From NCBI GenBank assembly GCA_016235265.1, contig JACRLI010000015.1, positions 133,335 through 197,334 on the forward strand: 64,000 nt of DNA, in the 5' to 3' direction. Of the stretch, positions 14,757-61,207 are shown in pieces. The DNA is from Candidatus Eiseniibacteriota bacterium (GTDB lineage Bacteria; Eisenbacteria; RBG-16-71-46; JACRLI01). The position numbers and the translations under genes were made by a program. How positions within the stretch are numbered: the stretch's first letter is position 1; each line of letters begins with the position of its first letter. The notes below the pieces were generated by a model. The model worked only from the letters and a program-made list of their open reading frames with translations. It was not told where the DNA came from and did no database searches.

Positions 14757-14771
14757 GCAATCCACGTGCCA
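14757..14771 (-). promoter_or_regulatory. Sigma54 (RpoN) -24/-12 promoter for the flgB...fliN operon
   Basis: Minus strand reads TGGCAC-GTGGA-TTGC (exact consensus TGGCAC-N5-TTGC); predicted TSS about 14745, 19 nt upstream of the flgB GTG. Confidence 0.75.
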
Positions 14772-20505: not shown

Positions 20506-20520
20506 GCAATGCCTGTGCCA
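20506..20520 (-). promoter_or_regulatory. Sigma54 -24/-12 promoter upstream of the receiver-cheR-cheY-sigma_r4-AMIN/TPR-HK-RR operon
   Basis: Minus strand reads TGGCAC-AGGCA-TTGC; the in-frame stop of the receiver ORF lies just downstream, so this is the leader. Confidence 0.7.
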
Positions 20521-20666: not shown

Positions 20667-22053
<1,387 letters not shown>

Positions 22054-22079
<26 letters not shown>

Positions 22080-25621: not shown

Positions 25622-25623
25622 GT

Positions 25624-25944
25624 TCAGGCCGCCTGGTCCATGGACCGGTGCATGCCGAAGACGTGCGAAAGCTGGGTCAGCTCGAACACTTCCTGCACCT
25701 GCGGCTGCAGCGAGAGCAGGCGCAGCGTGGCGCGCCGCTCCCGGCAGCGCTTGAGGCAGGTGATGAGCGAGGCCAGCCCCGCGCTGTTGACGAACGGCAC
25801 CGCCCGCAGGTCGATGGCCACGTGGAGCCCGGACTGCGCCAGCGCGGAGATCTCCTCCACGAGGAGGTTGCCGGCCTCGCCGTCCAGGCGTCCCGAGACC
25901 TCCAGGACGACTCCGTTGGGCACTTGCGATTTCTTCAGTGTCAT
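25624..25944 (-). CDS. STAS-domain anti-sigma-factor antagonist (RsbV/SpoIIAA-like)
   Basis: 106 aa from ATG at 25944 (AAGGAG RBS). ...DLRAVPFVNSAGLASLITCLKR... has the conserved phosphorylatable Ser context of SpoIIAA-family proteins. Confidence 0.8.
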   Translation of the reverse strand: MTLKKSQVPNGVVLEVSGRLDGEAGNLLVEEISALAQSGLHVAIDLRAVPFVNSAGLASLITCLKRCRERRATLRLLSLQPQVQEVFELTQLSHVFGMHRSMDQAA

Positions 25945-25975
25945 CTCCCGCTCCTTGGGGTTTCGGGGTTGCCGG

Positions 25976-26443
25976 TCACCCGGCCTTGCGCATTTCCATT
26001 GCGCCGGGGCGCGTCTTCCACATCCGGACCCGGTTTTCACCCGGGCCGCGGACCACCTCCACGTTGTCCATCAGCCGCAGCATCAACGCCACCCCGCGCC
26101 CCCCCTCCAGCATCTCGCGGTTGCGTTCGGTGACGGACTGCAGGCGGCCCACGTCGAAGCCGTTCCCGCGATCCACCACGTCGAACCACACGCCGTCCTC
26201 GACGTCGCTCACCACCAGCTCCACGGTGCGGTCGGCCCGCCGGCTGTTGCCGTGCGTGATGGCGTTGTGCATCGCCTCGTTGACCGCCAGGTCGATCCGG
26301 AAGGTGTCCCTCCGGCTCCACCCGCTGGCGCGGAGGAATGTCCGCAGACCGTGGCTCACCCACGGCAGCATGGCCGGGTCGCTGGGCAGTTCCACCCGGA
26401 ACCAGTGTTGCGCCGCTCCCAGGCGGCCGGCGTCGCGGTTCAC
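25976..26443 (-). CDS. Anti-sigma regulatory factor / serine protein kinase (RsbW/SpoIIAB-like HATPase_c)
   Basis: About 155 aa from GTG at 26443 (GTGA overlap with the phosphatase stop). N-box AVNEAMHNAITHG, G-box VVDRGNGFD, GRGVALM motif. Confidence 0.75.
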   Translation of the reverse strand: MNRDAGRLGAAQHWFRVELPSDPAMLPWVSHGLRTFLRASGWSRRDTFRIDLAVNEAMHNAITHGNSRRADRTVELVVSDVEDGVWFDVVDRGNGFDVGRLQSVTERNREMLEGGRGVALMLRLMDNVEVVRGPGENRVRMWKTRPGAMEMRKAG

Positions 26444-27726
26444 TCCGCCCTCCCCACCAGCACGGTCAGGTCGTCCGAGACGCCCCCGGGCCCCGCGTAC
26501 AGCCGGACCTCCTCCACGATGCGCGCGGCCAGCTCCTTCACCGGCAGCCCGCGCGCGGCGCGCACGGTGGCCAGCAGCCGTTCCATCCCGAAGAGCGAGT
26601 CGTCGGGGCCGTGCGCCTCGGTCACCCCGTCGGTGTAGAACACCAGGAGATCGTCCGGCGCCAGCGTCACCTCGCCGGCCACGTAGGTCATCTCCGGGAA
26701 CTGGCCCAGCACGCCGCCCCGGGCGGTGAGCCAGGCCGGCTCGCCCTCGCGCGGCAGCCACAGCGCCGGGCAGTGCCCCGCGTTGGCGTAGCGAAAGGTC
26801 CGCGTGGCGGCTTCGTACAGCCCGTAGAAGAGCGTCACGAACACGGATGCGTAGCGCTCGGTGTCCTCGCACAGCGCCAGGTTGACGCCGCGCACCGCGC
26901 CCGCCGGGTCCGAGTGCAGCGCCGCCTCGCGGCGCACCAGGCTTCTCGTGGCCACCATGAACAGCGCCGCGGGCACGCCCTTGTCGGAGACGTCCGCCAC
27001 CACCACCCCCGCCGCGCCCCCCGGGCCGCGCACGAAATCGAAGTAGTCGCCCCCCACCTTGCCCATCGGGAAGTACGCGGTGGCCCAGCGGATGCCGGTG
27101 CCCTCCGGCTCGCGGCCGGGCAGCAGCGCCATCTGGACCTGCCGGGCGATGCCCAGCTCCCGCTCGAGCGCCTGCTTCTCGAGGTCCACCTGGTGCAGCC
27201 GGGCGTTCTCGATGGCCACGGTGGCCAGGCCCGCCAGCGCGCCCAGGCTGTCTGCGGCCGCGGCATCCAGGCCCTCGTAGGCCAGGTTGGCGATCACCAG
27301 CGCGCCGAGGGCGTGACCCTTGTGCCGCAGCGGAACCGCGACCAGCGACTCCAGGCTCACGCCCTGCGGCACGCTCTGGAAGCGCGGGTCGTGCAGGCAA
27401 TCCGGCGACCAGACCATCTCCCCGGTCCGCGTGACGCACTCGGGAACGGTCTCGCCTCCCTGGAGCCGCAGTTGCTCCAGCACGTCCCCTTCCAGGCCCC
27501 ATGCCACCCGCGCGTGCGGGGTCTCGGCCTCCAGCCACAGGCAGCCCACTTCGGCGCCCGCCATGTGCAGGGCCGCGTCCATCAGGGTGCTGAGGATCTG
27601 GTCCCGGTCGAAGGTGGAGGTGAGCAGCGCGGCCACATCCGTGAGTTCCCGGATGCGCGCCAGGCCCAGCTCCAGCTCCGCGCGGTCGTCCACGGCCGGC
27701 GCGGCCACCTTGATCGCCTGGAGCAC
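26440..27726 (-). CDS. GAF-domain PP2C-type serine phosphatase (RsbU/SpoIIE-like)
   Basis: 428 aa; N-terminal GAF; C-terminal PP2C/SpoIIE domain with metal-binding GGDYFDF...VADVSDKGVPAALFM...YTDGVTE. Confidence 0.85.
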   Translation of the reverse strand: MLQAIKVAAPAVDDRAELELGLARIRELTDVAALLTSTFDRDQILSTLMDAALHMAGAEVGCLWLEAETPHARVAWGLEGDVLEQLRLQGGETVPECVTRTGEMVWSPDCLHDPRFQSVPQGVSLESLVAVPLRHKGHALGALVIANLAYEGLDAAAADSLGALAGLATVAIENARLHQVDLEKQALERELGIARQVQMALLPGREPEGTGIRWATAYFPMGKVGGDYFDFVRGPGGAAGVVVADVSDKGVPAALFMVATRSLVRREAALHSDPAGAVRGVNLALCEDTERYASVFVTLFYGLYEAATRTFRYANAGHCPALWLPREGEPAWLTARGGVLGQFPEMTYVAGEVTLAPDDLLVFYTDGVTEAHGPDDSLFGMERLLATVRAARGLPVKELAARIVEEVRLYAGPGGVSDDLTVLVGRAE

Positions 27727-27748
27727 CGGCGCCCTCCCCCGCGGGCCG

Positions 27749-28612
27749 TCAGGCGGCCTGCGGGACCTCCGCGTCCGGCGTGCCCATCACTTCCTCCGCC
27801 TGCTTCCATTCCTTCTGGAACTCGACGGCCAGGTCCGCCGCGCGCTCGAAGGGCACGGTGGCCGCCTGCCACAGCGTGGCGTCCACGTCCGCCGCGGCCC
27901 GGCCCGCGTCCAGCGCGTGGGCCAGGGAATCCGCCAGCGCCACCAGGTGCACCAGCGGTTGGTGCTGCGCGTCCGCAGCGGCGGGTGAGTGGTGGTGAGT
28001 GATGGCCGCCACGATGACGTCGGGGAGCTTCCACTTGGTCGCCAGCCATCCACCCACCTCGCCATGCGAGGCACCCAGGAACTCCCGCTCGGCGTCGGAC
28101 GCGGAGTTCTGCCGCTCCTTCGCCGACGCCAGGGCCTCCTCGTATTCGACCGTGGCCACCACGTCGAGCACCAGCTTGCCCAGGTCGTGGACCAGGCCCG
28201 CGGACATCGCGGCTTCGCTGTCGCGGCCCACCGCGCGGGCCAGCACCCGGCCGCCCACGCCCACACCCAGCGAGTGCCGCCAGAACTCCTGGGGCTGGAA
28301 CGTCTTCGCCCCCGCGCCCGCGATCATGCGGTGCACGGAGGCGGACAGGGCCAGGCTGCGGATGGTGTTGAAGCCGAGCACCAGGGCGCACTGGGGCAGC
28401 GAGACCATCCCGTTGCGGCGGCCGAAGTACGCGGAGTTGGCCAGGCGCAGCATCCGGGCGGCGAGCGCCGGCTCCTGGCTGATCAGCTCGTTGAGCCGCG
28501 ACACGGAGGACTTGGGGTCGTCCACCGCCGCGATGATCTTGGTGACCACCACGGGGAGCGACGGCAGATTGGGAGTGCGCTCCACCTTCTGCTGGAGTTC
28601 GGCGAGTAGCAT
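27749..28612 (-). CDS. HDOD-domain signalling protein
   Basis: 287 aa; HDOD family (IIAAVDDPKSSVSRLNELISQEPALAARMLRLANSAYFG...LVHDLGKLVL...ITHHH). Confidence 0.8.
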   Translation of the reverse strand: MLLAELQQKVERTPNLPSLPVVVTKIIAAVDDPKSSVSRLNELISQEPALAARMLRLANSAYFGRRNGMVSLPQCALVLGFNTIRSLALSASVHRMIAGAGAKTFQPQEFWRHSLGVGVGGRVLARAVGRDSEAAMSAGLVHDLGKLVLDVVATVEYEEALASAKERQNSASDAEREFLGASHGEVGGWLATKWKLPDVIVAAITHHHSPAAADAQHQPLVHLVALADSLAHALDAGRAAADVDATLWQAATVPFERAADLAVEFQKEWKQAEEVMGTPDAEVPQAA

Positions 28613-35829: not shown

Positions 35830-35859
35830 GGTGTTCCTCCTCGATGCGCGCGGCGGCCG

Positions 35860-36657
35860 CTACGCCGCCCGCTGCGCCGTCTCCAGCCGCCGGAGCAGGC
35901 TGGGCAGCAGCGCCAGCTCCGGGTTGCGCCATTTCTGCTGGAACAGGGCGCGGTTGCGTTCGATCAACGCCATGTAGTCCACGCCCTCGGCGCGGAATGT
36001 GGCGCTGCCCTCGTGGTGCACGAAGCAGCTTTCCACCACCAGGCACTTCAGGCCCAGCAGGCGGGTCCTCAGGCAGTAGTCGTCGTCCTCGAAGTTGCCG
36101 ATCCCGAAGCGCTCGTCCCATTCGCCCACGGCGTCGGCCGTCTCCCGGGTGAAGGCGAGGCAGAAACCCACCAATCGCTCCACCTCGCGCACCGCGCCGA
36201 AGCGCGTGGCGGCCAGGGTGCGGGCCACGCCGTCGGGCCCGCCGCTGCGCGCGTAGTCCACCGGGACGCACTGCGCACCGGAGCAGTTGTTGGTGAGCGG
36301 GCCCGCCAGCCCCGCGCCGGGCAACGCCAGCGCCTCGTGCAGCTCCTCCAGCCAGCCCGGAGTGACCTGCACGTCGCTGTTGAGCAGCACCAGCGTCCCG
36401 CCGCGGGAAGCGTCCACCAGCTGGTTGACGGCAGCCGCGAAGCCGCGGTTCCCGGGATTCACGATCAGGCGCACGTCGCGGCCGGCGAGGTCCTCGCGCA
36501 CGTCCGCGCGGGAGCCGTTGTCCACGATCACGATCTCGTGGGGCTGCCGGGTGTGGCGGCCGATGCTCTCGAGAGCCAGCCGCAGCAGCGGCAGCTGGTT
36601 CCATACCGGCACCAGGATGGACGTGAGCCGGGGTTCGATTCCGCGTTCAACCGGCAA
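35860..36657 (-). CDS. GT2-family glycosyltransferase (probable TTG start overlapping upstream stop)
   Basis: About 265 aa; TSILVPVWNQ...IVIVDNGS...LNSDV...FGIGNFEDDDYCLR family-2 GT motifs. Confidence 0.7.
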   Translation of the reverse strand: MPVERGIEPRLTSILVPVWNQLPLLRLALESIGRHTRQPHEIVIVDNGSRADVREDLAGRDVRLIVNPGNRGFAAAVNQLVDASRGGTLVLLNSDVQVTPGWLEELHEALALPGAGLAGPLTNNCSGAQCVPVDYARSGGPDGVARTLAATRFGAVREVERLVGFCLAFTRETADAVGEWDERFGIGNFEDDDYCLRTRLLGLKCLVVESCFVHHEGSATFRAEGVDYMALIERNRALFQQKWRNPELALLPSLLRRLETAQRAA

Positions 36658-39529: not shown

Positions 39530-40538
39530 CTCGGCCTCCGTCCGGTCGCCTTTCGTGGCCGGCCGCCTCGCGGCGGGCCAGCTCGTCCAGCGCGTACACC
39601 GTGCGCTCCGCCTCTTCCAGCGTCACCGCGGCCTCGCACGGGAAGCTCAGCGCGCGCCGCAGGTACTCCACCGCGCCGGGAAAGCTCCGCCGCACGTGAG
39701 GATCGTCGGGGTCCAGCCCCAGGGCCAGCCGCAGCTGCGGCCGCGCCACGCGCACGCCGCGCGCGTGCAGCTGGCGCGCCCATGCCGCGTTGGGATAGGC
39801 CGTCGAGCCGAACAGCACCCGCACCGTGTAGCGCGGCCACGTGCCGCGGGTGCCGCGCGCGTACTCGGGCAGGCGGACGCCATCCAGCGGGCCCCAGGCG
39901 GATTCCCAGAGCGCGGCCAGGCGGCGCTGCCCCGCGACGCGCGCGGGAAGGGCCGCCAGGAATTCCTCCAGCGCCGGATCGGCCGGCGCCCCCACCTCAA
40001 CGGAGGGCGGGGGCAGCTTGCGACCCGCCTCCTCCACCGTGCCCGCGTCGGCCGAGGCGATGCGCGCCGCGCGGTCGGGACCGTGCAGCAGCACCGCGTC
40101 GGCGTGGGCCCCCGGAAGGAAGCCCTGGGCCATCGCCCCCAGCGACTCGCGCACCTCCTCGACCACCACCGCGTCACGGCGCCGGGCCAGGGCGGCCAGT
40201 TGCGGTCCGTCCGGCGGCAGGCCGTCCACGTCGGCGCACCACAGGGCCTCGAAGCCCCGGCCTTCGCGGGCCACCGAGGACACATCCAGGCGCCCGGTGT
40301 CGGGATCCACATCCAGCGGGACCACGTCACAACCGCCCCGCCTCAGAGCCTCGGCGGCCTGCGTGCAGCCCCACACCGGCAGCGCCACGCGCGCGCCGGG
40401 CCCCAGGCCCAGCGTGCGCGACAGCGCCTGCGCGGCGGTGCGGAACGGGACCGGTCGGGTCAGCGCGACCACCTCCAGGTGGTCCTCCAGTCCCTCGGGC
40501 AGCCCCGCGGGGCGGATCGGCTGGCGCAGCGCGCTCAC
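39519..40538 (-). CDS. DegT/DnrJ/EryC1-like (PLP-dependent sugar aminotransferase-like) protein, possibly degenerate
   Basis: 339 aa from GTG at 40538 (GTGA overlap); VALPVWGCTQAAEALRRGGCDVVPLDVDPDTGRLD resembles the DegT motif (PSFTF.A...G..PVFVDID..T.NID); assignment is tentative. Confidence 0.45.
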   Translation of the reverse strand: MSALRQPIRPAGLPEGLEDHLEVVALTRPVPFRTAAQALSRTLGLGPGARVALPVWGCTQAAEALRRGGCDVVPLDVDPDTGRLDVSSVAREGRGFEALWCADVDGLPPDGPQLAALARRRDAVVVEEVRESLGAMAQGFLPGAHADAVLLHGPDRAARIASADAGTVEEAGRKLPPPSVEVGAPADPALEEFLAALPARVAGQRRLAALWESAWGPLDGVRLPEYARGTRGTWPRYTVRVLFGSTAYPNAAWARQLHARGVRVARPQLRLALGLDPDDPHVRRSFPGAVEYLRRALSFPCEAAVTLEEAERTVYALDELARREAAGHERRPDGGRDAG

Positions 40539-41515
40539 GAGGCGGCTCTCCAGGCCGCGCCGCGGGCATCGCGGGTTCGGCCCGCGTCCGCGGCGGCCCA
40601 GGCGCGCATCTCGCGCAGCCCTTCCCGGAGCGTCACCGACGGGGCCCAGCGCAGCAGCCGCGCCGCGAGCGAGGGGTCCCCGCGCATGCGGCCGATCTCG
40701 GCCAGCGGCGCGGGGTGGGTGACGAAGGTGTAGCCGACCCCCGCCGACATGGAGCGCCCCAGCTCGGAGAGGCGCGTCTCCTCGCCGGAGGCGGCGTGCA
40801 CCACCGTGCCGTGCACGCGGAGATCCTCGCCCATCTCGGCCAGCAGCCGCGCCACGTCCCGGGCGTGCACGAAGTCGCGGCTCTGACGGCCGTCGCCGTG
40901 GATCTTCACCTTCTCGCCGCGGGCGACGCGGCGGGCGAACGTGGCGATCACGCTGTCGTCCTCCTCCCCTTCGGGAACGGGGCCGTACGCGCCGAACACC
41001 CGGCACACCGAAACCGGCAAACCGTGGGTGTGATCGCAGGACAGCGCCAGCTGCTCGGCCGCCAGGAGCGCCGCGGCGCGCGGTGTGCGCGCCGCGGTGG
41101 GCCAGGACTCCGACTGCTTCTCCCGGCCGCGGTAGGGCTCCAGCACCTCGGAGCTGCCCGCGAGCACCAGCCGCGCCCGGTGCGCCCGGCACGCCTCCAC
41201 CACCTCCAGCGCCTCGCCGACCACGCGGCGGAACGCCTCACGCGGCGACGCGTCCGCGGCGGAGGCACGCGGCACCTGCCAGAAACACACCGCCGGCCGC
41301 TCCGAGAACACCGGCAGCAGCTCCTCGGGGTTGCCCACGGCGCCCGCGCTGAAACCCAGGAATCCCTCCCGGCCCGCCAGCTCCGCGTACCCGCGGGCGG
41401 AGGCCTCCGACCTGCCCAGCACGCGCACCGAGTGTCCGCGCGCCAGCCACTCGGCGACCAGCGCGTGGCCCAGGGCGCCCGAGCCGCCGACCAACGCCGC
41501 GCTCAGGCCGCGCAC
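40535..41515 (-). CDS. NAD-dependent epimerase/dehydratase (SDR family)
   Basis: About 326 aa from GTG at 41515; glycine-rich NAD motif VGGSGALGHALVAEWLARGHSV; epimerase C-terminal region. Confidence 0.65.
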   Translation of the reverse strand: MRGLSAALVGGSGALGHALVAEWLARGHSVRVLGRSEASARGYAELAGREGFLGFSAGAVGNPEELLPVFSERPAVCFWQVPRASAADASPREAFRRVVGEALEVVEACRAHRARLVLAGSSEVLEPYRGREKQSESWPTAARTPRAAALLAAEQLALSCDHTHGLPVSVCRVFGAYGPVPEGEEDDSVIATFARRVARGEKVKIHGDGRQSRDFVHARDVARLLAEMGEDLRVHGTVVHAASGEETRLSELGRSMSAGVGYTFVTHPAPLAEIGRMRGDPSLAARLLRWAPSVTLREGLREMRAWAAADAGRTRDARGAAWRAAS

Positions 41516-44103
41516 GCCTCCGCCTTCCCGGGGCGCGGCGCAGGCCGGGCCCGCAGCGCCTCCTCCAGGCCCTCCACCAGGTCCATCCGGCTTTGGGCGC
41601 GCGCGCGGCGCAGCGCCTCGGCGGTCGCGTCCCGCGCCCCGGCGTAATCGCCCATGCGCGCCAGGAGGTCGGCGCGCCGCAGGGCCGGCGCGAGCTCGCC
41701 GGGCATCAGCTCGCACAGGCGCGCATAGCCGCTGGCCGCCACCGGCAGGTTCCCGTGGGTCTCCGCGAGGCGCGTGGCCTCGGATACCGCCCAGGTGTTG
41801 GCGGGCTCCAGGTTGATCGCCTGCTGGTACTGTCCGACGGCGTCCTGCACCCGCCCGGCGGCCTCCAGCACGCGCCCGCAGGCCACCAGCAGCACGGCGG
41901 GTCGCGGGGTTTCAAGCAACTCCCGCCGCATCAGCTCGCCCGCGGCGCCGAAGTCGCGCATGGCGGCCAGGGAGAGCGCCAGGCCGGACACGGCCCCGGG
42001 CAGGTGCGGATGGGCGCCCAGCACGCGGGCGAAGATTTCCGACGCGGCCTCGGGGGAGTTGGACTCGAGCAGTTCGTGCCCGCGGCTCATGGCGTCGGCC
42101 AGGTGCACCGGATCGCCCAGGTCGCGCTCCTCCCGGGGCCCGTCCGGTCCCAGGCCCAGAGCGGGTCCGAGGAGGCTGGCGATGCGCTCGTCGCCATGCG
42201 CCTCTCGCACCAGCTCGCGCCCCGCGCGCGAAAGCGCCTCCCACGCCTCCTTCGAGTCGTACAGCTCCGCGATGGCGCGGGCGAACCCCTCGGGGTCCGA
42301 TGCGATCCTCGCGTTCCGCCCATCCACCAGGTGCATGCCCTCGGCGCCCACCGGGGTGGTCACGCACGGCAGGCCGCAGCCCAGCGCCATGGCGATCTTG
42401 CCCTTGAGCCCCGCACCGTAGCGCAGCGGGGCGATCGAGACGCGGGCCCCGGAGAGGTACGGGGCCAGGTCGGGAACGTAACCGGTGACCTCGATGTCCC
42501 CTCCGTGGAGCCGCCGCACCGATTCCGGCGGGCGGTCACCCACGATGCGCCAGCGCACGCCGGGCAGCAGTTCGCGCACCCGGGGCCACACCTCGGCGTG
42601 GAACCACGCCACCGCGTCCACGTTGGGCAGGTGGCGGAAGCCCGCCAGGAACACCAGGTCGCGGCGCGCCTCGAAACCGGGCTCGTGCTCGTCCACGTGG
42701 TAGACGTCGGGCACCACGCGCACGTCGCGATCCGGCAGGTGGCGCAGCAGCTCGAGTCGGTCGTCCTCGGTGACGGTCAGCACGGTGTTGGCGCAGCGGT
42801 AGGCCGCCAGTTCCCGGGCCTGCATCTGACGGAACGGCCTCCAGGTCTCCGGGAGGTCCTCCTGGCGCGCGCGGCGGGCGTGCCGCAGGAAATCGAGGTC
42901 CACCGAGTCGATCACGATGCGCGTCCGCGGACTCTCCTGGATCAGCCGGGGAATGAGGCGCAGGGCCGACTCGTAGAACGGCAGCAGCGCGACGTCGTAG
43001 TCGCGACCCGCGAGCAGCGCGCCCATCGCCGCGGAGGGGTCCACCCGCGGCGGGCTGCCCTGCAGCGGGCGGTCCAGCGGGTACACCATCACTCCCGTGG
43101 CGCGCAGCCGCTCCACGTAGGGAGCCAGATCGATGCCTTCGTGCTCCCCGCTGTGCAGGCAGGCCACGGTCACGTGGTGGCCGCGCTCCGCGAGGAGCCG
43201 CACCATGTTGTGGATGCGCTGGAAGCCGGAGGCGCGGTCGAAGAGCGGCGGGATCTCGTGGAACATCAGCACCTGGCGGCCCGAGATGCGGTGCGCCGCG
43301 CGCGCGGTCTCACGCGGGTCGCGGGTCACGACCGGCTGGAGGCGCAGTTCCGCGGTCCACTTCTCGAGGAACTTGGGCCGGTTGACGGCCTGGAACTTCT
43401 TGAATCCGGACTCGGTGTCGCGGCCCGCGGTCACGCCCTCGTGATGCACCACCCGTGCGGCGGGCTGGTAGACCACCCGCAGGCCCTCGCGGCGCGCGGC
43501 GAAACACAGGTCGGTGTCTTCGTAGTAGGCGGGCGCGAAGCGGCGGTCGAAGCCACCCAGCTTCCGGAACAGGCTGGCGCGCGCCAGCAGGCAGGCGCCG
43601 GAGCCGTAGTCCACCTCGCGGACGTAGGCGTACTCGGGAGCCTCGGGATCGCCGCCGCGGCCGTAGTTGCATCCGGTGGCGTCGGAGAAGAGGATGCCGC
43701 CCGCCTCCTGCAGCGTGCCGTCGGTGTTGAGCAGGCGCGCACACACGACTCCCGCGGTGGCGTCGCGCTCGGCGGTATCCACCAGCGCCTCGAGCCAGCC
43801 GGGCGCGGGGAGGGTGTCGTTGTTGAGGAACACCAGGTACTCGCCGCCCGCGACCTCGGCAGCGCGGTTGTTGCCGTCCACGAAGCCGAGGTTCTCCGGG
43901 CTGGAGATCACCTGCATGGCGCCCTCGGGGAGGCTGCCCCGGAACGCCGCCAGCCAATCCCCGGTGCCGTCGGTGGACGCGTTGTCCACCACCACCAGTT
44001 CGTAGAGGCCGGCGGGCGTGACGTCGCGCACCCGCTCCAGGCAGGCGCGGGTGTGCGCGAGGTGGTTGAAACAGACGACCAGGATGCTGGCTTTCGGCGG
44101 CAT
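41503..44103 (-). CDS. Multi-domain glycosyltransferase (GT2 plus GT4-like plus TPR), 866 aa
   Basis: ATG at 44103 with GAGGAG RBS; N-terminal GT2 (ILVVCFN...VVVDNAS...FLNNDT...YYEDTDLCF); central GT-B/GT4-like region (GAGLKGKIAMALGCGLPCVTTPVGAEG); C-terminal TPR. Confidence 0.8.
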   Translation of the reverse strand: MPPKASILVVCFNHLAHTRACLERVRDVTPAGLYELVVVDNASTDGTGDWLAAFRGSLPEGAMQVISSPENLGFVDGNNRAAEVAGGEYLVFLNNDTLPAPGWLEALVDTAERDATAGVVCARLLNTDGTLQEAGGILFSDATGCNYGRGGDPEAPEYAYVREVDYGSGACLLARASLFRKLGGFDRRFAPAYYEDTDLCFAARREGLRVVYQPAARVVHHEGVTAGRDTESGFKKFQAVNRPKFLEKWTAELRLQPVVTRDPRETARAAHRISGRQVLMFHEIPPLFDRASGFQRIHNMVRLLAERGHHVTVACLHSGEHEGIDLAPYVERLRATGVMVYPLDRPLQGSPPRVDPSAAMGALLAGRDYDVALLPFYESALRLIPRLIQESPRTRIVIDSVDLDFLRHARRARQEDLPETWRPFRQMQARELAAYRCANTVLTVTEDDRLELLRHLPDRDVRVVPDVYHVDEHEPGFEARRDLVFLAGFRHLPNVDAVAWFHAEVWPRVRELLPGVRWRIVGDRPPESVRRLHGGDIEVTGYVPDLAPYLSGARVSIAPLRYGAGLKGKIAMALGCGLPCVTTPVGAEGMHLVDGRNARIASDPEGFARAIAELYDSKEAWEALSRAGRELVREAHGDERIASLLGPALGLGPDGPREERDLGDPVHLADAMSRGHELLESNSPEAASEIFARVLGAHPHLPGAVSGLALSLAAMRDFGAAGELMRRELLETPRPAVLLVACGRVLEAAGRVQDAVGQYQQAINLEPANTWAVSEATRLAETHGNLPVAASGYARLCELMPGELAPALRRADLLARMGDYAGARDATAEALRRARAQSRMDLVEGLEEALRARPAPRPGKAEACAA

Positions 44104-44161
44104 GGCTCCTCGCGCGGAAATGGAAGACGGATGGCCGGGCGGGCCGGACATCCTGCGGAGA

Positions 44162-44176
44162 GCAACCGATGTGCCA
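44162..44176 (-). promoter_or_regulatory. Sigma54 -24/-12 promoter for the glycosyltransferase island
   Basis: Minus strand reads TGGCAC-ATCGG-TTGCT (exact consensus), about 58 nt upstream of the 44103 ATG. Confidence 0.75.
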
Positions 44177-44313
44177 TGCGGGAAGGCAATCGAAGCGAGG
44201 GGCTATCTTACGGAATGCCTTGAGGAAGCGCCGGGGCCGGGAAATGGCCACCGGGCGGAACGGAAAAGGGCGCCGGCGGATAAGCCACCGGGCGCCCAGA
44301 ATCTGGCCGAGGA

Positions 44314-44559
44314 TCAGTCCTTCTTGGGTTTCACCTTCCGGAGCACCCGGGCGGCATCCTTGATGTCCAGCGGGGAGGCGTTCGCCGCGCGGCGATTCTC
44401 CTCCTGGATGCGCTCGTAGATCTCCTCGCGGTGAACGATCACCTCGGGCGGAGCTTCGATCCCGAGCTTCACCTGCGTGCCGCGGACTTCGAGGACCGTG
44501 ATTTTCACGTTGTCCCCGATCCGAATGTTCTCGCCCAACTTCCGTGTTAGGACCAGCAT
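44314..44559 (-). CDS. csrA: Carbon storage regulator CsrA (flagellin translational repressor type)
   Basis: 81 aa from ATG at 44559 (GGAGG RBS); [51 protein letters not shown] is the canonical CsrA fold sequence. Confidence 0.93.
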
Positions 44560-52532: not shown

Positions 52533-53261
52533 CTAGCGGGCGCGGCCGACGTTGTTGATGAGCACCGAGAGGGTGTCGCCCTGGAGCTGCGCGCTCTTCA
52601 TGTTCGACTCGTAGCTCCGGAAGGCGGCCACCATGTCGATCATCTCCTCGACCGGGTTCACATTCGAACCTTCGAGGAACCCCTGTTTCACCGTCGCGCC
52701 CGTGGCGGCGACGGGCTGTCCGGACGAGGCCCACAGGGTGGCGCCTTCGCGCGTCAGCTCCGCACCCTCGGGGAACTTCACCAGGCGCAGCCTGCCGGCG
52801 GGCTGGCCGCCCGTGGTCACCGTGCCGTCGGGCGAGATCGTCACGTCGCCCTCGACGCGGATCGGGCCGCCCTCCCCCAGGACCTGGGAACCGTCGGGCA
52901 GCGACAGCTGGCCCCCGGCGTTCATCGTGAAGTTGCCGGCTCGGGTGTAGCGCTCGCCCGCGGGAGTGCTCACCGCGAAGAAGGCGTCGCCGGTGATGGC
53001 CAGGTCCAGCGGGTTGCCGGTCTGGTCCACCGAACCCGGCCGCATGTCGGGGCGCGTCCGCGGGTCGGCGGCCAGCGACGGCCCGCCGGGCATGGGGGCC
53101 GGCGAGCCACCCGCGGCGGCCTGCTTGAGCACGCTCTGGAAGCTCACCTTGTCCCGCTTGAACCCGGGCGTGAGGGCGTTGGCCAGGTTGTTGGCCAGCG
53201 TTTCCTGCTGCGCGATGCGCGGCAGGATGCCTTCACGAGCCCGACGAAGTCCCTCGATCAC
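52533..53261 (-). CDS. flgF: Flagellar proximal rod protein FlgF
   Basis: About 242 aa from GTG (GGAGGTG about 6 nt upstream); LANNLANALTPGFK and C-terminal LEGSNVNPVEEMIDMVAAFRSYE rod motifs. The long N-terminal extension in the ORF track (to 53597) lacks homology and would bury the sigma54 promoter. Confidence 0.8.
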   Translation of the reverse strand: MIEGLRRAREGILPRIAQQETLANNLANALTPGFKRDKVSFQSVLKQAAAGGSPAPMPGGPSLAADPRTRPDMRPGSVDQTGNPLDLAITGDAFFAVSTPAGERYTRAGNFTMNAGGQLSLPDGSQVLGEGGPIRVEGDVTISPDGTVTTGGQPAGRLRLVKFPEGAELTREGATLWASSGQPVAATGATVKQGFLEGSNVNPVEEMIDMVAAFRSYESNMKSAQLQGDTLSVLINNVGRAR

Positions 53262-53311
53262 GACGTTCACCTCCGCGGCGGCCGGATAGACCTGTCCGGC
53301 AGCCGGAATCG

Positions 53312-53326
53312 CAACGGACGTGCCAC
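53312..53326 (-). promoter_or_regulatory. Sigma54 -24/-12 promoter for flgF-flgG-flgA-flgH-flgI-flgJ
   Basis: Minus strand reads TGGCAC-GTCCG-TTGC (exact consensus), about 50 nt upstream of the flgF start. Confidence 0.72.
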
Positions 53327-53550
53327 GGGCCCGCGAGCGGCCGGGGACGGCCCCGGGCGGCGCGCCCATGTGCCGAATTCGCTGGGAGAGGCGCGGCGGG
53401 GGCGCAGGTGTGGAGGTCCCGGCCCCCGAGGGCGTGGCGGGGCTGTCGGGGCCGCGGGGGCAGGAACAAATTGACCGCGGGCGGCAAATTCTGCCGCCCG
53501 AAGCCCGGCCGGCGCGTGCAATAATGCGAAGCCACGAAACGAGGTCCGGG

Positions 53551-55841
53551 ATGACCAGAACGCGCACCCTGGTATATCCGACAGCGTTCTTCTTCACCGC
53601 CGTGTGGCTGCTCGCCGTGGTGCAGGGCTTTCGACAGCCCTACACCGGGGCGGCGGTGCAGAGCGGCCGCGTGGACATGGTGGAGCCCGGCGGGCCCGCG
53701 GACCTCGCGGGGGGCACCCCCCGGCGCGCGAGATCACCTGGCAGGCGCTGCTGGCCCTCTCCGGCCTGGCGCTCATCCTGCTGGGCCTGTGGGTCCACCG
53801 CCGCAGGCCGCAGCCCGCGACCGCGCTGTTCCTGCTGCTGTCGGTGCTCCTGGCGCTCATCTTCAAGCCCTCCCTGCAGCTGCCCCCCGAGGTGCCCGCC
53901 CCCCTGGAGGAGTGGGTGCTGCAGGCGGCGCAGCTGGGCTTCCCGCCCCTGCTGATCCACTTCGTGATGCTCTTCCCGCCGCGCGCCGGCGGGCCGCAAC
54001 CCTCGAGGCGGCGCCTGGCCGCGGTGTACCTGCCGGCGGTGGCGCTGCTGCTGGTGAACGGCAGCGTGGCCACGGCGGCGCTGGCCGCCCCGGGGGAGTA
54101 CCACCGGGCGCTGGAGGCGGCCCAGGGGGTGGCGGCGCTCTACTTCCTGGGCGCGCTCGCGGTGGCATCGGCGCTGCTGCTGCGCACCTACCGGCGCGTG
54201 CGCACCACGGTGGAGCGCAACCGGATGCGGGTGGCGCTGTGGGGAACGCTGGTGGGCCTGCTGCCGCCGGCTTTGACCACGGTGGCCCTGATGTGGGTGC
54301 CGCTGTCGGCGGTGCCTTGGAGCCGCTACGCCTCGCTCTCGCTGTTGCTGGTCCCGGCCGCGTTCGCCGACGCCGCGGTGCGGCACCGGCTCTTCGATTT
54401 CGAGGTGGCGTTCAAGCGGGGCCTGGTCTACAGCACGCTGGCCGCCGCCTCGCTGGCGGTGTACGTGCTGCTGGCGCAGGTCGCCGGGCGGTGGCTCTCG
54501 CGGGCCACGCACCTGCCGGACCTGGTGTGGCCGGCGCTCTCGGTGTTCGCCGCCGGGCTGCTGTTCGCGCCCGCGCGGGCGCGGCTCTCCACCGCGGTGG
54601 ACCAGCTCTTCCTGCGCGGCCCATTCGACTACCGCGCGGCGCTGCTGCGCCTCACCCACGAACTGGCCCGCGTGCCCACCGTGGACGCCCTGATGGAGCG
54701 GGGCTTCCCGGGCCTGCTGGCGGCGCTGGGGCTCAAGCAGCTGGCCTTCTATCATGGAAGCGCGCCCGAAGCGCTGCGGCTGCGCCGCGCCGTGCCGGCG
54801 GACGCCGACCCCCCCGCCGAACTGTGCGTGCCCCCGGACTGCGCGCTGGCCGGCCTGGATGAGGCGGCGCCGTGGGACCCCGACACCGCCGCATGGAGCG
54901 GGTTGCCTTTGGAATCCCGGCGCGCGCTCGACGCCATGCGCGCCTGCGCCCTGGCGCCGCTGCGCCTCGATGGGCGGCTGGTGGGGCTGTGGGTGCTGGG
55001 ACCTCGCGCCGCGGGCCCGTGGTACGAGCCCGCCGATCTCGAGTTGCTCACCGGGCTTTCCGACCAGACGTCGCGCGCGCTGGACCGCGAGAGGGCGCAG
55101 CGGGAGGCCGAGACCCAGGCCCACCTCAAGCGCGAGTTGCTGGTGGCCCGGCACCTGCAGCGCATGCTGGTGCCGGCCCACACCCCGATCTACCCCACCT
55201 TGGACCTGGCCAGCGCCAGCCTGCCCTGCGAAGAGGTCGGGGGCGACTACTTCGATTTCATGCCGCAGGGCGACCACCGCTTCGGGTTCGTGATCGCCGA
55301 CAGTTCCGGCAAGGGAGTGCCCGCCGCGCTCCTGATGGCCGGCCTGCAGGCCCAGTTCCGCGCCGAGGCGCCGCGCCATCCCAGCCCCGGGGAGCTGCTG
55401 GCCCTGCTCAACGCCCGGGTGCGCCCGGAGGACGATCCCCGCAGGTACGTGGCCCTCTTCTACGCGCAGGTGGACGTGCGCGAGCGGCGCATCCGCTACG
55501 CCAACGGCGGGCACCCGCCGCCCATGCTGCTGCGCGCCAGCGGCTCGGTGGAACGGCTGAACGAGGGCGGCCTGCTGCTGGGAGTGTCCCCGGATGCCGG
55601 CTACCCGGAGGGCGAACTACAGCTGGAGCGCGGCGACCTGCTGGTGTTCTACACCGACGGGGTGGTCGAAGAACGCTCGGGCGACGATTTCTATGGCGAC
55701 GGCCGGCTGGAATCCGCCCTGGCCCGGCACCGCCACCTGCGCGCCCACCGCCTGGTGGACCGGGTCATCGAAGACGTGCAAGCTTTTAGCGGTGCGCCAC
55801 TTGGAGACGACGTCACGGTCGTGGCGATGAAGTTCCTCTAA
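53551..55841 (+). CDS. Membrane-bound sensor phosphatase: N-terminal TM/PDZ-like segment, about 8 TM helices, GAF, PP2C (SpoIIE-type). Reading frame broken in a G6-CA-C6 tract near 53709-53722
   Basis: ATG at 53551 (GAGG RBS) opens MTRTRTLVYPTAFFFTAVWLLAVVQGF...VEPGGPADLAGG. The main ORF (track 53604..55841) continues in a different frame with ...PPAREITWQALLALSGLALILLGLWV. One extra C in the C6 run joins them seamlessly. C-terminal PP2C motifs (GGDYFDF...IADSSGKGVPAALLM...FYTDGVVE). Confidence 0.65.
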
Positions 55842-59347: not shown

Positions 59348-60955
59348 CTACTCGTCGACGGCCTGGACCTCGATGACGAGGTTGATCCGCACCTTCTGCC
59401 CCGGCTTCAGCCCCGAGAGGCTCACCGGGATGGTAAAGGTGCGGTCCACCGGTGCGGGCCCGGCTTCGCCGTGGGCCGCCGCGACCGGGGCTCCAACCTC
59501 GTGGTGCAACTCGACGACTTCGGCCTGCAGCTTCGGGTACGGCGCCTGCGAGCCGGCGCCCGGGCGACCGCCGATGCTCTCCGGCAAGTCGCGGCTGCCG
59601 AACCCCTCGCGGAAGTCGGGCAGGTCCAGCGGACGGTCGTCGGAGGGCGGGGGCAGCTCGTCCGCCTGCACGGCGGCCGCCTCCTCCAACGATGCGGACA
59701 CCGCGGGCGGCTCGAACACTGTGGCCGGCTCCGGCCGGGTCACCACCGCCGGCGGCGCGCACGTCTCCACCGCGGTGGCCGCGAAGCCGGCGGATTCCGC
59801 CTGCTGCCGCGCGGCAAACTCAGACACTCCCACCGCCTCGACGGACTCCTGGACCGGGGGCGCGACGCCATTGCCCTTGCCGGTCTTGAGCCACGTGGCG
59901 AACCGCTCCGCGAGCGACGGAGCCCGCCGGGAAGCAGCCGCGGAGTACATGGACGCCTCCGCCGGGGAAGCGCCGTACGTGGAGGCGTCCGCTGAAGCGG
60001 CCGCGGCCATCGCCGCGCCTGCGCCCGCGGCCGAAGCCATCGCCGGCTCCGGTTCGGGCACCGCCGGCTGCGGGGGCGGCGCCGGTGCCAGTGGCTGGCT
60101 CTCCCGCACCCCTGGCGCGGCGGCCGCCGGGGCGGGATCGAAGACCGCCGGAGCGGGAGCCTGGATCTCGGGCCGGCTCGTCTCGCGGACGGCCGGCGCC
60201 GGCGCGTGGGACGCGGAAGCGGCCTCGAAGGCCACCGGCTCGGGCTCCGGCAGGGATCGCGCCGGCGCCGGCGCGGACGCCGCCGGCGGGGCGGAAGGAG
60301 AAGCGGGCGCGGAAGCCATGGGACGCGCTTCGCCGGCGGACATCGCCGACGAACTGCGCGCGCCGAGCTTCAGCTCCCGGTTCAGGTTCTCGAGCAGCAG
60401 CCGCGACACGCCGCGGAAAGTCTCGAACACTCCGTCACCCTTGACCGCCACCGCCTCGAACCACGGCACGCCCTTGGGGTTGAGCTCGCGGTTGAGCTCT
60501 TCGACGGTGTAGACATCCGGCAGGTCGCGCTTGTTGTACTGGATCACCCAGGGCACCTGGTCCAGGGACAGGTTGTACTCGGCCAGGTTGTCCACCAGGT
60601 TCTGCAGGCTGTCCAGGTTCTCCTGCATCCGGCCGCGCTCCGAGTCGGCCACGAACACGATGGCGTCGGCCCCCCGCAGCACCAGCTTGCGGGTGGCGTT
60701 GTAGAACACCTGCCCCGGCACGGTGTAGAGCATGAACCGGGTCTTGAAGCCGGAGATCTCGCCCAGGTCAATGGGCAGCAGGTCGAAGAACAGCGTGCGG
60801 TCGTTCTGGGTCTTCATCGAGACCATCTTGCCGCGGCTGGTGGACGGGATGGCGCCGTAGATGAACTCGAGGTTGGTGGTCTTGCCGGAGAGCCCGGTGC
60901 CGTAATAGACCAGCTTGGCGTTGATTTCGCGGCCCGAATAACTTACGACAACCAC
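59348..60955 (-). CDS. MglA-like Ras-family small GTPase fused to a roughly 340-aa Ala/Pro-rich low-complexity region and a C-terminal beta-rich domain
   Basis: GTG at 60955 with AGGAGG RBS. First about 195 aa align with Myxococcus MglA (REINAKLVYYGTGLSGKTTNL...DRTLFFDLLP...TVPGQVFY...VIQYNKRDL). The rest is a long A/P/S-rich segment ending in TFTIPVSLSGLKPGQKVRINLVIEVQAVDE. Confidence 0.75.
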   Translation of the reverse strand: MVVVSYSGREINAKLVYYGTGLSGKTTNLEFIYGAIPSTSRGKMVSMKTQNDRTLFFDLLPIDLGEISGFKTRFMLYTVPGQVFYNATRKLVLRGADAIVFVADSERGRMQENLDSLQNLVDNLAEYNLSLDQVPWVIQYNKRDLPDVYTVEELNRELNPKGVPWFEAVAVKGDGVFETFRGVSRLLLENLNRELKLGARSSSAMSAGEARPMASAPASPSAPPAASAPAPARSLPEPEPVAFEAASASHAPAPAVRETSRPEIQAPAPAVFDPAPAAAAPGVRESQPLAPAPPPQPAVPEPEPAMASAAGAGAAMAAAASADASTYGASPAEASMYSAAASRRAPSLAERFATWLKTGKGNGVAPPVQESVEAVGVSEFAARQQAESAGFAATAVETCAPPAVVTRPEPATVFEPPAVSASLEEAAAVQADELPPPSDDRPLDLPDFREGFGSRDLPESIGGRPGAGSQAPYPKLQAEVVELHHEVGAPVAAAHGEAGPAPVDRTFTIPVSLSGLKPGQKVRINLVIEVQAVDE

Positions 60956-61079
60956 AAAGCCTCCTTGCGAGATGCGGCCCGCCCGGCGGTGCGTGAGGCC
61001 GGTGCTCGCCTGCGATGCGAATCGGCAGCCTTCAGCGGGATTGGGCGCATTGGGCGCGGATTCCCTGCCCTGAAGATTC

Positions 61080-61094
61080 GCACCATTCGTGCCA
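61080..61094 (-). promoter_or_regulatory. Sigma54-like promoter upstream of the MglA-like gene (imperfect -12)
   Basis: Minus strand reads TGGCACG-AATG-GTGC; GG and GC correctly spaced but G replaces T at -14; about 110 nt upstream of the GTG. Confidence 0.4.
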
Positions 61095-61207
61095 GCCTCC
61101 CGGTCGTTGGGAGCGCGGACTTTGCAGGCGGCTTTCGCGGGTTTCGTCGAGCCGGGACGCGCAAACTGCACGGGGAACCGGGCAGACTCGCGATCGCCCC
61201 GCGACCG

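Follow-up and report, generated by a model that had tools for sequence, protein, structure and literature searches.

Spacing against intact orthologues points to a 127-nt deletion in a PDZ-GAF-PP2C sensor phosphatase gene beside the flgFG operon of a Candidatus Eisenbacteria bacterium

Among described PP2C phosphatases, those closest to the protein considered here are RsbU, RsbP, and SpoIIE. Their inputs differ: RsbU carries an RsbT-binding N-terminal domain, RsbP a PAS domain together with the partner RsbQ, and SpoIIE 10 transmembrane (TM) helices and an FtsZ-binding region. A precedent for the control of flagellar gene expression by a PP2C phosphatase, via a STAS protein, is the HsbR-HsbA-FlgM/FliA system of Pseudomonas aeruginosa, in which HsbR, a soluble fusion of response regulator, PP2C, and kinase, is driven by a phosphorelay. 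Proteins of 820-870 aa with the domain order PDZ-7TM-GAF-SpoIIE occur in Eisenbacteria and Acidobacteriota MAGs and are uncharacterised; examples are HVP38438.1 (P0002) and a JGI protein named 'phosphoserine phosphatase RsbU/P' (P0007). We found no experimentally studied member, and literature searches on Eisenbacteria flagella and on PP2C, STAS proteins, and flagella brought up nothing about the family.

We analysed a gene of this type in a 64,000-nt stretch of contig JACRLI010000015.1 from a Candidatus Eiseniibacteriota bacterium, hereafter the window (Table 1). The initial annotation had described a second, membrane-anchored GAF-PP2C phosphatase divergent from the flgF operon, an arrangement that is indeed kept in orthologous loci. 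The gene does not form a single continuous frame of about 800-870 codons. The frame from ATG 53551 encodes MTRTRTLVYPTAFFFTAVWLLAVV..., with a hydrophobic helix at residues 6-24, and then VEPGGPADLAGG; translation, hydropathy, and the match to P0002 agree with the proposed N-terminus comprising a TM helix and a PDZ-like stretch. Residues 1-54 of P0002 match this piece in frame +1 with 65% identity (tblastn, E=4e-15), so the upstream stub is no random ORF. Residues 100-805 of P0002 match the second piece with 69% identity in the single frame +3. Frame +1 extends up to 53712 and frame +3 from 53721, the two tblastn segments lying 8 nt apart. The ORF at 53604-55841 (745 aa) is in the -1/+2 frame relative to that of ATG 53551 and, as had been described, combines about eight TM helices with a GAF domain and a SpoIIE-type PP2C domain, as judged from hydrophobic segments and Pfam matches. 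Together, the alignments show that the two pieces are the 5' and 3' parts of a single gene.

Orthologues of 805 aa (P0002, 69% identity) and 807 aa (P0003/P0004, 58% identity) cover both pieces, and their identity to the window gene spans its whole surviving length. They are its best matches, align collinearly, and share its neighbours (flgF operon, EEP, TrpA). Synteny of flgF, the divergent phosphatase, and EEP/TrpA is kept, and the gene is intact in loci L001, L002, and L087 and in L003-L006; intact orthologues divergent from flgF thus occur in at least two other lineages. The size of the gap was taken from affine-gap pairwise alignment and a count of anchor spacing, which replaced a MAFFT DNA alignment of the 5' region that was misleading in that the gap was pushed to its end. 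Two conserved anchors that L001 and L003 each space 183 nt apart are 56 nt apart in the window, and 8 nt (53713-53720) stand where the orthologues have 135 nt, corresponding to codons 55-99 (45 residues). The net loss is exactly 127 nt (3 × 42 + 1), which changes the frame by -1/+2, and the deletion covers codons 55-97, which form the PDZ core. On this spacing, the break is a 127-nt deletion, and a one-base slip in a homopolymer is excluded as its cause. The initial annotation had attributed the break to a homopolymer frameshift in a G6-CA-C6 tract at about 53709-53722. Its coordinates for the tract match exactly and the frame is interrupted as it said; the cause it gave gives way to the deletion. 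The tract was itself created by the junction, with Gly codons on the left and Pro codons on the right, and both runs are ordinary Gly and Pro codons that are also found in the orthologues. The junction forms a 14-nt G/C palindrome within sequence of 72-79% GC. One added C was said to fuse the parts seamlessly: it does restore the frame, but 42-43 conserved PDZ residues remain absent.

Table 1. Features of the disrupted phosphatase locus and of the partner-switch genes in the window.
Feature	Coordinates	Strand	Basis or detail
STAS anti-sigma-factor antagonist	25624..25944	-	Pfam STAS 1.1e-16
RsbW/SpoIIAB-like anti-sigma serine kinase	25976..26440	-	HATPase_c_2 1.8e-24; start codon not fixed
Soluble GAF-PP2C phosphatase	26440..27726	-	Pfam SpoIIE 2.8e-47, GAF_2 1.9e-14
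Sigma54-type promoter match TGGCACGTCCGTTGC	53311..53325	-	about 50 nt upstream of flgF start
Intergenic block with palindrome GGGCGGCA-AATTC-TGCCGCCC	53462..53499	+	50-90 nt upstream of phosphatase start
Native start	53541..53553	+	Shine-Dalgarno-like GAGG 53541-53544, ATG 53551
5' remnant, codons 1-54: cytoplasmic tip, TM helix 1 (residues 6-24), first ~30 PDZ residues (..VEPGGPADLAG)	53551..53712	+	tblastn, protein alignment, hydropathy
Spurious N-terminal extension of MBI5837369.1 (745 aa)	53604..53714	+	37 Arg/Gly-rich out-of-frame residues
Tract GGGGGG-CA-CCCCCC	53709-53722		contains the junction
Deletion junction	53713..53720	+	spacing versus both orthologue lineages, codon-by-codon comparison
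3' remnant, orthologue codons 98-805 and stop codon	53715..55841	+	tblastn, Pfam, alignment
Out-of-frame tail, 79 nonsense codons, stop 53953-53955	53716..53955	+	translation
TM region, 7-8 helices	about 53733-54569	+	
GAF-like domain	about 54687-55088	+	Pfam GAF E=1e-4
SpoIIE/PP2C domain	about 55272-55835	+	Pfam SpoIIE

The nature of the missing segment was evaluated using the relatives. A profile of the deleted segment matches the PDZ domains of RseP and DegP (E~2e-8), and each of the 10 full-length relatives sampled, as well as P0007-P0009, has a Pfam PDZ domain at this position. The remnant has no Pfam PDZ match; the orthologue segments score 25-52 bits. Instead of a complete PDZ domain after the N-terminal TM helix, the window gene retains the helix and only the first ~30 PDZ residues, and beta strands 79-85 and 88-94 of the orthologue's AF2 model fall in the deleted stretch. 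Of the best 150 cluster representatives, about 50 have an alignment that begins in the first 50 residues and runs to the C-terminus, indicating that the TM helix and PDZ domain are ancestral. By prediction, the PDZ domain follows the N-terminal TM helix on the outer side of the cytoplasmic membrane.

Read from the AF2 model of the orthologue, the family order is an N-terminal TM helix, PDZ, 7-8 TM helices, GAF, and a SpoIIE/RsbU-type PP2C domain. In the window gene, the SpoIIE match (PF07228) covers profile positions 2-191 of 192 (E=1.3e-50; 172.4 bits versus a cut-off of 25), and the GAF match is weak (E=1e-4; 23.3 bits versus a cut-off of 22.4). Residues D566, D569, D584, D703, D753, and D754 (fused numbering) do not vary among the eight homologues of alignment A1 and sit in the motifs GGDYFD, ADSSGKG, TDG, and DD; we take them to be the PP2C metal ligands known from the family. 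The PP2C region of the P0002 model has pLDDT values mostly of 80-95, and the model matches 3KE6, 3F79, 5MQH, and 6K4E with E-values of about 1e-10 to 1e-8 and TM-scores to target of 0.5-0.8. Using phmmer, the window protein itself matches 3KE6 with E=2.6e-14. The number of TM helices varies with the method, being 8-9 by hydropathy and 8 in the AF2 model, where residues 292-337 are of low confidence. If PDZ is periplasmic and PP2C cytoplasmic, the chain must cross the membrane an odd number of times. One relative has a sub-threshold HisKA_7TM match.

We consider it probable that the locus is a recent pseudogene, that is, a conserved sensor phosphatase broken by the 127-bp deletion, and we infer loss of function and a biological rather than assembly-error origin. 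In the assembled sequence the deletion takes out codons 55-97 and shifts the frame, and ribosomes from the native start (GAGG-N6-ATG 53551) would yield a 134-aa product, stopping at 53955, in which 79 nonsense residues follow 55 native ones. For the remaining 2.1 kb (TM module, GAF, and PP2C), no start codon close to the junction has a ribosome-binding site; the 3' part is thus most likely not expressed, which points to a recent pseudogene. That the true start is internal and the ORF from ATG 53551 spurious is very improbable. The NCBI annotation does give a 745-aa protein from GTG 53604, and an internal GTG at 53916 is preceded by GGAGG. Against this, the upstream piece is homologous to orthologue N-termini (E=4e-15) and kept in ~50 of the best 150 representatives; the orthologues begin at an ATG homologous to ATG 53551, and neighbouring genes have similar GAGG/GGAGG motifs in their start contexts. 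No Shine-Dalgarno motif precedes GTG 53604, whose first 37 codons are out of register with the true frame, and the self match (P0001, a singleton cluster) spans only 93% of the fused query. At 53916, GGAGG simply encodes the conserved LEEW, and three TM helices would be lost. The initial annotation had called for comparison with orthologues, whose lack of the N-terminal segment would have made the true start internal; they keep it, which excludes that scenario. An unlikely but more serious alternative is an artefact of assembly or consensus, in which the organism, or most of its cells, would carry an intact ~805-aa gene and the gap would stem from metagenome assembly or binning, for example through a local mis-join in a low-coverage, very GC-rich stretch or through capture of a minority deletion allele. 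The source is a MAG (MBI5837369.1, Candidatus Eisenbacteria bacterium), the remainder of the gene looks no different from one under selection, and the junction is a G/C palindrome in GC-rich sequence; short-read coverage of such contexts is often poor. On the other side, tblastn comparison of 19 other syntenic genes over about 20 kb revealed no frame break (17 align in full or nearly so, one is cut by the end of the window, and one aligns over its first 203 residues only), so the assembly is not generally error-prone. Moreover, assembler and homopolymer errors do not typically remove 127 nt cleanly from coding sequence that lacks repeats, and the contig is long (549 kb). The surviving 2.1 kb is free of further frameshifts. 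In a relative-rate test with L003 as the outgroup, it showed no acceleration, with 56 unique changes in the window copy versus 71 in L002 (205 versus 231 for the flanking genes). As the surviving part is not faster than its orthologue, the lesion is recent or artefactual. Its lack of frameshifts and acceleration fits a very recent lesion, and fits an artefact or a gene still being expressed just as well. At 72% GC, few stop codons occur in any frame, and the open downstream frame is therefore weak evidence either way. Among the matches listed from a scan of genome contigs with the A1 PP2C-core patterns, all were distant relatives at 23-44% identity, most of them Acidobacteriota, and a close Eisenbacteria genome was not among them. 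Metagenomes scanned with a degenerate 36-mer taken from the conserved N-terminus gave a single contig, L087, of the P0002 lineage (99.9% identical), with the gene intact, and nothing closer to the window. Across these scans and the protein searches, no further genome of the window's lineage turned up.

The remaining alternatives retain some expression of the 3' part. Slippage-prone phase variation, raised by the initial annotation, finds little in its favour: the deletion explains the frame change, and the tract bears no mark of a contingency repeat. The window contains 31 G or C runs of at least 6 (nine C runs are of at least 7), which makes the tract as such unremarkable; it is not unusually long, and runs of six, common here, are short for phase variation. 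Nor does a one-unit change toggle between a full-length and a truncated protein, as the deletion removes the PDZ core and slippage in the C run cannot restore the ancestral protein. The sequence G GGG GGC at 53709-53715 is formally an X XXY YYZ heptamer, with GGG and GGC as codons of the upstream frame, and possible -1 read-through at this site counts against a pseudogene. To our knowledge, G GGG GGC is not among the efficient slippery sequences. Programmed -1 frameshifting was set aside as the RNA fold downstream of the junction did not exceed shuffled controls: the segment 53700-53820 forms no stimulatory structure more stable than shuffled sequences (z=-0.16). We also consider it improbable that a functional, PDZ-less, 'sensor-blind' TM-7TM-GAF-PP2C protein of ~763 aa, or a slippage variant, is made. 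Such a protein could arise from an in-frame 126-nt deletion, the extra missing base being a sequencing error in the G6 or C6 run, or from the 127-nt allele partly rescued by -1 frameshifting or indel slippage in the G6/C6 runs. A -1 shift or one added base does give a continuous frame, the heptamer fits X XXY YYZ in the upstream frame, the fused topology would be sensible (TM1, a short loop of ~35 residues, and the TM bundle), and there is no decay downstream. In addition, a more distant relative, P0005, has neither the N-terminal TM helix nor the PDZ domain. However, the sequencing-error version supposes that two events coincided at the same position, while one 127-nt deletion would be enough; rescue by frameshifting is disfavoured by the lack of a downstream stimulatory structure and of any frameshift use in the orthologues, all of which are single ORFs; and the presence of PDZ in 10 of 10 sampled full-length relatives makes its loss unlikely to be neutral.

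The region between the phosphatase gene and flgF was searched for regulatory elements. By homology, flgF starts at GTG 53261. The match TGGCACGTCCGTTGC fits TGGCAC-N5-TTGC exactly and is conserved in the L001 and L003 loci; it marks the divergent flagellar rod operon. An intergenic palindrome block, shared by the window, L001, and L003 as AGGAA..TTGaCCG..GGCAA-N3-5-TTGCC, is a possible promoter or operator element. Assignment of this palindrome as a sigma54 or sigma28 site was rejected, the plus-strand spacing judged by eye not fitting. A scan of 53150-53750 for sigma70 promoters and terminators found nothing.

The window also contains a PP2C/RsbW-like/STAS module at 25.6-28.6 kb, inside the flagellar cluster. 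The RsbW-like kinase gene lies directly downstream of the soluble PP2C gene, and the STAS protein has a conserved Ser in the motif FVNSAGL, the candidate phosphorylation site by analogy with SpoIIAA and RsbV. The STAS and kinase genes adjoin the soluble PP2C gene and are 27 kb from the membrane phosphatase gene. From what is known of the RsbU/SpoIIE family, the intact membrane protein would answer a periplasmic or membrane signal by dephosphorylating a phosphorylated STAS antagonist, and would thereby control a sigma factor or another partner-switch output. The initial annotation suggested that both phosphatases feed one STAS/kinase switch, in the manner of RsbU and RsbP; the 64-kb window holds two PP2C genes, one of them disrupted, and one STAS/kinase pair, which the two phosphatases may or may not share. 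The conserved position next to flgFG suggests that the output may be motility-linked. A doubtful extension, which we give even less weight than a PDZ-less product, is that the family acts as a new kind of envelope checkpoint in which the PDZ domain reads C-terminal peptides to gate the PP2C domain, this copy being a PDZ-deletion allele. The peptides would come from unassembled outer-membrane or flagellar rod/ring proteins, as for DegS/RseP and sigmaE, and the PP2C domain would dephosphorylate the flagellar-cluster STAS antagonist, coupling the state of envelope or flagellar assembly to a sigma-factor switch. This allele, if partly expressed by -1 slippage at G GGG GGC, might then give a sensor-blind phosphatase.

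Reading the break as a homopolymer frameshift would wrongly imply phase variation. The public entry MBI5837369.1 is a mis-started fragment of a disrupted gene, for which a pseudogene flag or a check of the reads is warranted. More broadly, the locus points to a widespread, unstudied PDZ-7TM-GAF-PP2C architecture, with a place beside the sigma54-driven flgFG operon that Eisenbacteria-like genomes share. Provided that the deletion is real, the input was recently lost while a complete PP2C/RsbW/STAS module was kept in the flagellar cluster; this would be a small natural experiment and no new principle.

Compared with RsbU, RsbP, and SpoIIE, the likeness lies in the PF07228 catalytic domain (172 bits) and its motifs GGDYFD, ADSSGKG, TDG, and DD. 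The best sequence and fold matches in the PDB are the RsbU domain of M. tuberculosis Rv1364c (3KE6), B. subtilis SpoIIE (5MQH/5UCG), and P. aeruginosa RssB (3F79) and SiaA (6K4E). Like SpoIIE, the window-family phosphatase is tethered to a multi-pass membrane domain, and like RsbP it has a sensor domain ahead of PP2C, PAS in RsbP and a small-molecule-type GAF here. The difference is in the input, which in the window family consists of a TM helix, a periplasmic PDZ domain, 7-8 TM helices, and GAF; unlike the genes of those systems, the window gene also lacks an adjacent STAS or kinase gene and is disrupted. As in HsbR-HsbA, genes for PP2C, RsbW-like kinase, and STAS proteins lie inside the flagellar cluster; FlgM was not identified within the window, and in contrast to HsbR the window phosphatases are GAF-linked, one of them membrane-bound. 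With DegS/RseP of the E. coli sigmaE pathway and DegP/DegQ, the likeness is limited to the input domain: the best matches to the deleted segment's profile are PDZ domains from RseP homologues (aq_1964) and from DegP/DegQ, and as in these proteins an N-terminal TM helix precedes a PDZ domain predicted to be extracytoplasmic, whereas the output in the window family is a cytoplasmic PP2C domain and no protease. The uncharacterised PDZ-7TM-GAF-SpoIIE proteins have the same domain order, and the window gene is orthologous to them; relative to them, the window copy is short of 127 nt, its PDZ core is gone, and its frame is broken.

The frame opened by ATG 53551, which is preceded by GAGG like the starts of neighbouring genes, reads MTRTRTLVYPTAFFFTAVWLLAVVQGFRQPYTGAAVQSGRVDMVEPGGPADLAGG and, beyond this native part, runs through 79 Arg/Cys/Pro-rich nonsense codons to a stop at 53955. 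The long ORF (53604-55841, 745 aa) lies in the -1/+2 frame, and a GGGGGG-CA-CCCCCC tract occupies 53709-53722. The initial annotation, which ascribed the break to a homopolymer frameshift and fused both parts by adding one C, was correct in these coordinates and in the frame change. Using the fused protein as query, we recovered the window's own product (MBI5837369.1, 745 aa, 549-kb contig, singleton cluster; 'MAG: SpoIIE family protein phosphatase [Candidatus Eisenbacteria bacterium]') and three full-length relatives: P0002 (HVP38438.1, 805 aa), P0003 and P0004 (both 807 aa), with aligned identities to the window protein of 69%, 58% and 58%. All three align across the upstream stub and the long ORF alike. 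In the orthologous loci, the flgF-flgG-flgA-flgH... operon occupies one strand and the phosphatase gene diverges from it, with an endonuclease/exonuclease/phosphatase-family gene and trpA next in line. The phosphatase is a single intact ORF in three P0002-lineage assemblies (ENA, NCBI, JGI) and in several of the P0003 lineage. Because intact syntenic orthologues span both parts, a spurious upstream ORF is excluded, and stub and long ORF are pieces of one gene. The contig encoding HVP38438.1 (GCA_035542815.1, DATKKS010000079.1; loci L001/L002) is labelled 'Candidatus Saccharimonadales bacterium', yet its flagellar operons form a complete set, in synteny with the Eisenbacteria window and at ~78-82% nucleotide identity to it; the contig is probably mis-binned or mislabelled.

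The nature of the lesion was evident from comparison with these orthologues. In the alignment, ~45 residues between '..PAxxAG' and 'P...L.WQ' are missing from the window. With tblastn, P0002 residues 1-54 matched frame +1 (53551-53712) and residues 100-805 matched frame +3 (53721-55838), with a gap of only 8 nt on the window. The anchors GTGGAGCC and (A/G)CCTGGC are 56 nt apart in the window versus 183 nt in both L001 and L003 (the P0003-lineage locus), two lineages only ~57% identical to each other. Thus, exactly 127 nt (3x42+1) are missing. On the left, the junction ends GCG GGG (Ala53 Gly54) plus two leftover G; on the right, CAC CCC CCG GCG CGC GAG ATC ACC TGG corresponds to orthologue codons 98-106 (A-L/P-P-...-W). 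As codons match on both sides, the G run derives from Gly codons in the PDZ loop, and the C run consists of Pro codons that L003 shares (GCT CCC CCG). The deletion juxtaposed the two runs, slippage of either not being needed. A homopolymer slip is accordingly not the cause; the one-C repair does restore the frame, but the resulting protein lacks 42-43 conserved residues. With 31 G or C runs of at least 6 across the window, such a tract is no signal in itself.

Several lines of evidence identify the missing segment as PDZ. Pfam PDZ_6 scores on it were near-threshold (26.6 bits for P0002 and 24.7 bits for P0003; cut-off 27), the corresponding segment of P0007, a more distant relative, gave clear PDZ matches (52 bits), and the window remnant had no Pfam PDZ match. 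A profile of six such segments matched PDZ domains of RseP-type site-2 proteases and DegP/DegQ in the PDB (E~2e-8). In the AlphaFold model of P0002 (mean pLDDT 76.9), the two best-defined strands, 79-85 and 88-94, fall within deleted residues 55-97. An exhaustive P0002 search yielded 6866 proteins at E<=1e-30; among the best 150 cluster representatives, about 50 (mostly 805-870 aa) have alignments that begin within the first 50 residues and reach the C-terminus. Among ten sampled full-length relatives, all had PDZ (~residues 45-110) and SpoIIE (~610-845), nine had GAF (~420-590), and in one the membrane region also gave a HisKA_7TM score below threshold. For the PP2C part, matches were to the Rv1364c RsbU domain, P. 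aeruginosa RssB and SiaA, and B. subtilis SpoIIE and RsbX, all of the partner-switching branch of PP2C. The motifs GGDYFD, ADSSGKG, TDG and DD are all retained in the window copy.

Coordinates of features in the window and of segments in the AlphaFold model of P0002
Feature	Position	Strand	Remark
fliN, fliM, fliL, motB, motA, flbD, flgE, flgD, FliK-like ORF		minus	FliK-like ORF ~6032-7900, 79% GC
fliI, fliH, fliG, fliF, flgC, flgB		minus	
Sensor kinases, response regulators, CheR, sigma54 activator		minus	sigma54-activator response regulator 20670-22523
HEAT-repeat protein, STAS, RsbW-like kinase, GAF-PP2C, HDOD		minus	operon-like run 23603-28612
STAS protein	25624-25944	minus	downstream of GAF-PP2C with kinase
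RsbW-like HATPase_c_2 kinase	~25976-26440	minus	immediately downstream of GAF-PP2C
Soluble GAF-PP2C	26440-27726	minus	
flaG, fliD, fliS, flagellin, large TPR-glycosyltransferases		minus	
csrA, fliW, flgL, flgK, flgN, flgJ, flgI, flgH, flgA, flgG, flgF		minus	csrA 44317-44559
Arf-like ORF	59348-61207	minus	620 aa
Helix (TM1)	residues 2-26		P0002 model
Small beta-rich domain	residues 31-97		P0002 model
About eight helices	residues 101-362		P0002 model
Long connecting helix	residues 366-414		P0002 model
GAF-like alpha/beta domain	residues 420-530		P0002 model
Long helix	residues 536-582		P0002 model
PP2C domain	residues 593-804		P0002 model

The most likely account, which we hold with moderate confidence, is that a recent 127-bp deletion made a conserved PDZ-7TM-GAF-PP2C sensor phosphatase a pseudogene. 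An assembly or consensus artefact ranks second and appears unlikely. Across 20 syntenic genes (~20 kb, window versus L001/L002), the phosphatase alone had a frame break; 17 of the other 19 aligned over (nearly) their full length, one ran off the window end, and one Arf-like gene aligned over its first 203 residues only. The lack of breaks in these 19 makes systematic homopolymer error unlikely. The Arf-like ORF has a weak Arf/small-GTPase match and is 93% identical to a 492-aa orthologue over those residues, the remainder being diverged or rearranged. With L003 as outgroup, relative-rate tests gave 56 lineage-specific substitutions in the window copy and 71 in the P0002 lineage (205 versus 231 for twelve flanking genes combined), no sign of relaxed constraint in the surviving sequence. 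This leaves three readings: a recent event, an artefact, or a remainder that is still used.

A third account, well behind the other two and improbable, is a functional protein that is PDZ-less, rescued by slippage or phase-variable. The annotated start, GTG 53604, has no Shine-Dalgarno motif and is just the earliest start codon that the open frame offers; the initial 37 codons from there run across the true 5' coding region in the wrong register. The first 37 residues of MBI5837369.1 are this out-of-frame translation, and its name gives no hint of gene disruption. The sole internal start with GGAGG, GTG 53916, lies within the conserved LEEW motif and would cost three TM helices. The heptamer G GGG GGC (53709-53715) is a formal match to the X XXY YYZ pattern for -1 slippage; this is countered by the lack of downstream RNA structure beyond shuffled controls (z=-0.16) and of frameshift use among the orthologues. 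Overall, the initial observation is confirmed in part and its interpretation supported in part. The finding itself is ordinary, though this phosphatase family is widespread and unstudied.

One large minus-strand flagellar/chemotaxis cluster spans 1 to ~53.3 kb of the window (GC 67-79%). The flgF start was placed at 53261 by homology, the longest-ORF start (53597) not being used, and 289 nt of divergent intergenic region separate it from the phosphatase gene. The sigma54 core TGGCAC-N5-TTGC has four perfect minus-strand matches (14757-14771, 20506-20520, 44162-44176 and 53311-53325), each just upstream of an operon's first gene (flgB, the response-regulator/CheR operon, a glycosyltransferase and flgF); that at flgF is conserved in L001 and L003. 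A conserved intergenic block at 53462-53499, AGGAACAAATTGACCGCGGGCGGCAAATTCTGCCGCCC, contains an 8-bp perfect palindrome, is retained in both loci as GGCAA-N3-5-TTGCC, and is a possible operator or promoter; by eye, neither sigma54 nor sigma28 spacing fits. The Ala/Pro/Gly low-complexity FliK-like ORF, very GC-rich, sits between flgD and two ORFs without assignment, and its C-terminus resembles, by eye, the FliK hook-length-control domain. Between flagellin and csrA-fliW, the minus-strand region 32938-44202 encodes three very large TPR-plus-glycosyltransferase proteins (~880-990 aa) and aminotransferase-like and epimerase-like ORFs, which probably make up a flagellin glycosylation island. CsrA shares 99-100% identity with its L002 orthologue, compared with 64-86% for neighbouring flagellar proteins.

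The soluble GAF-PP2C reported initially was verified (SpoIIE 2.8e-47, GAF_2 1.9e-14). With the adjacent RsbW-like kinase and STAS protein, it makes up a complete partner-switch module inside the flagellar cluster. The STAS protein carries a Ser in FVNSAGL, which we take to correspond to the phosphorylation site of SpoIIAA and RsbV. Upstream, the module is flanked by an HDOD protein; downstream come a HEAT-repeat protein (670 aa), a histidine kinase and a sigma54 activator. The region beyond the operon-like run, 18.5-23.8 kb, also encodes response regulators, CheR and a sigma70-region-4 protein. No FlgM was recognised in the window. By analogy with RsbU and RsbP, which share RsbV as their target, the membrane phosphatase, an orphan PP2C, could plausibly feed the same STAS protein, as judged from the 64 kb of genome covered. 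This would-be second input is broken in the genome as assembled. PP2C/STAS control of flagellar expression has precedent in the HsbR-HsbA-FlgM/FliA system of P. aeruginosa (PMC6482189).
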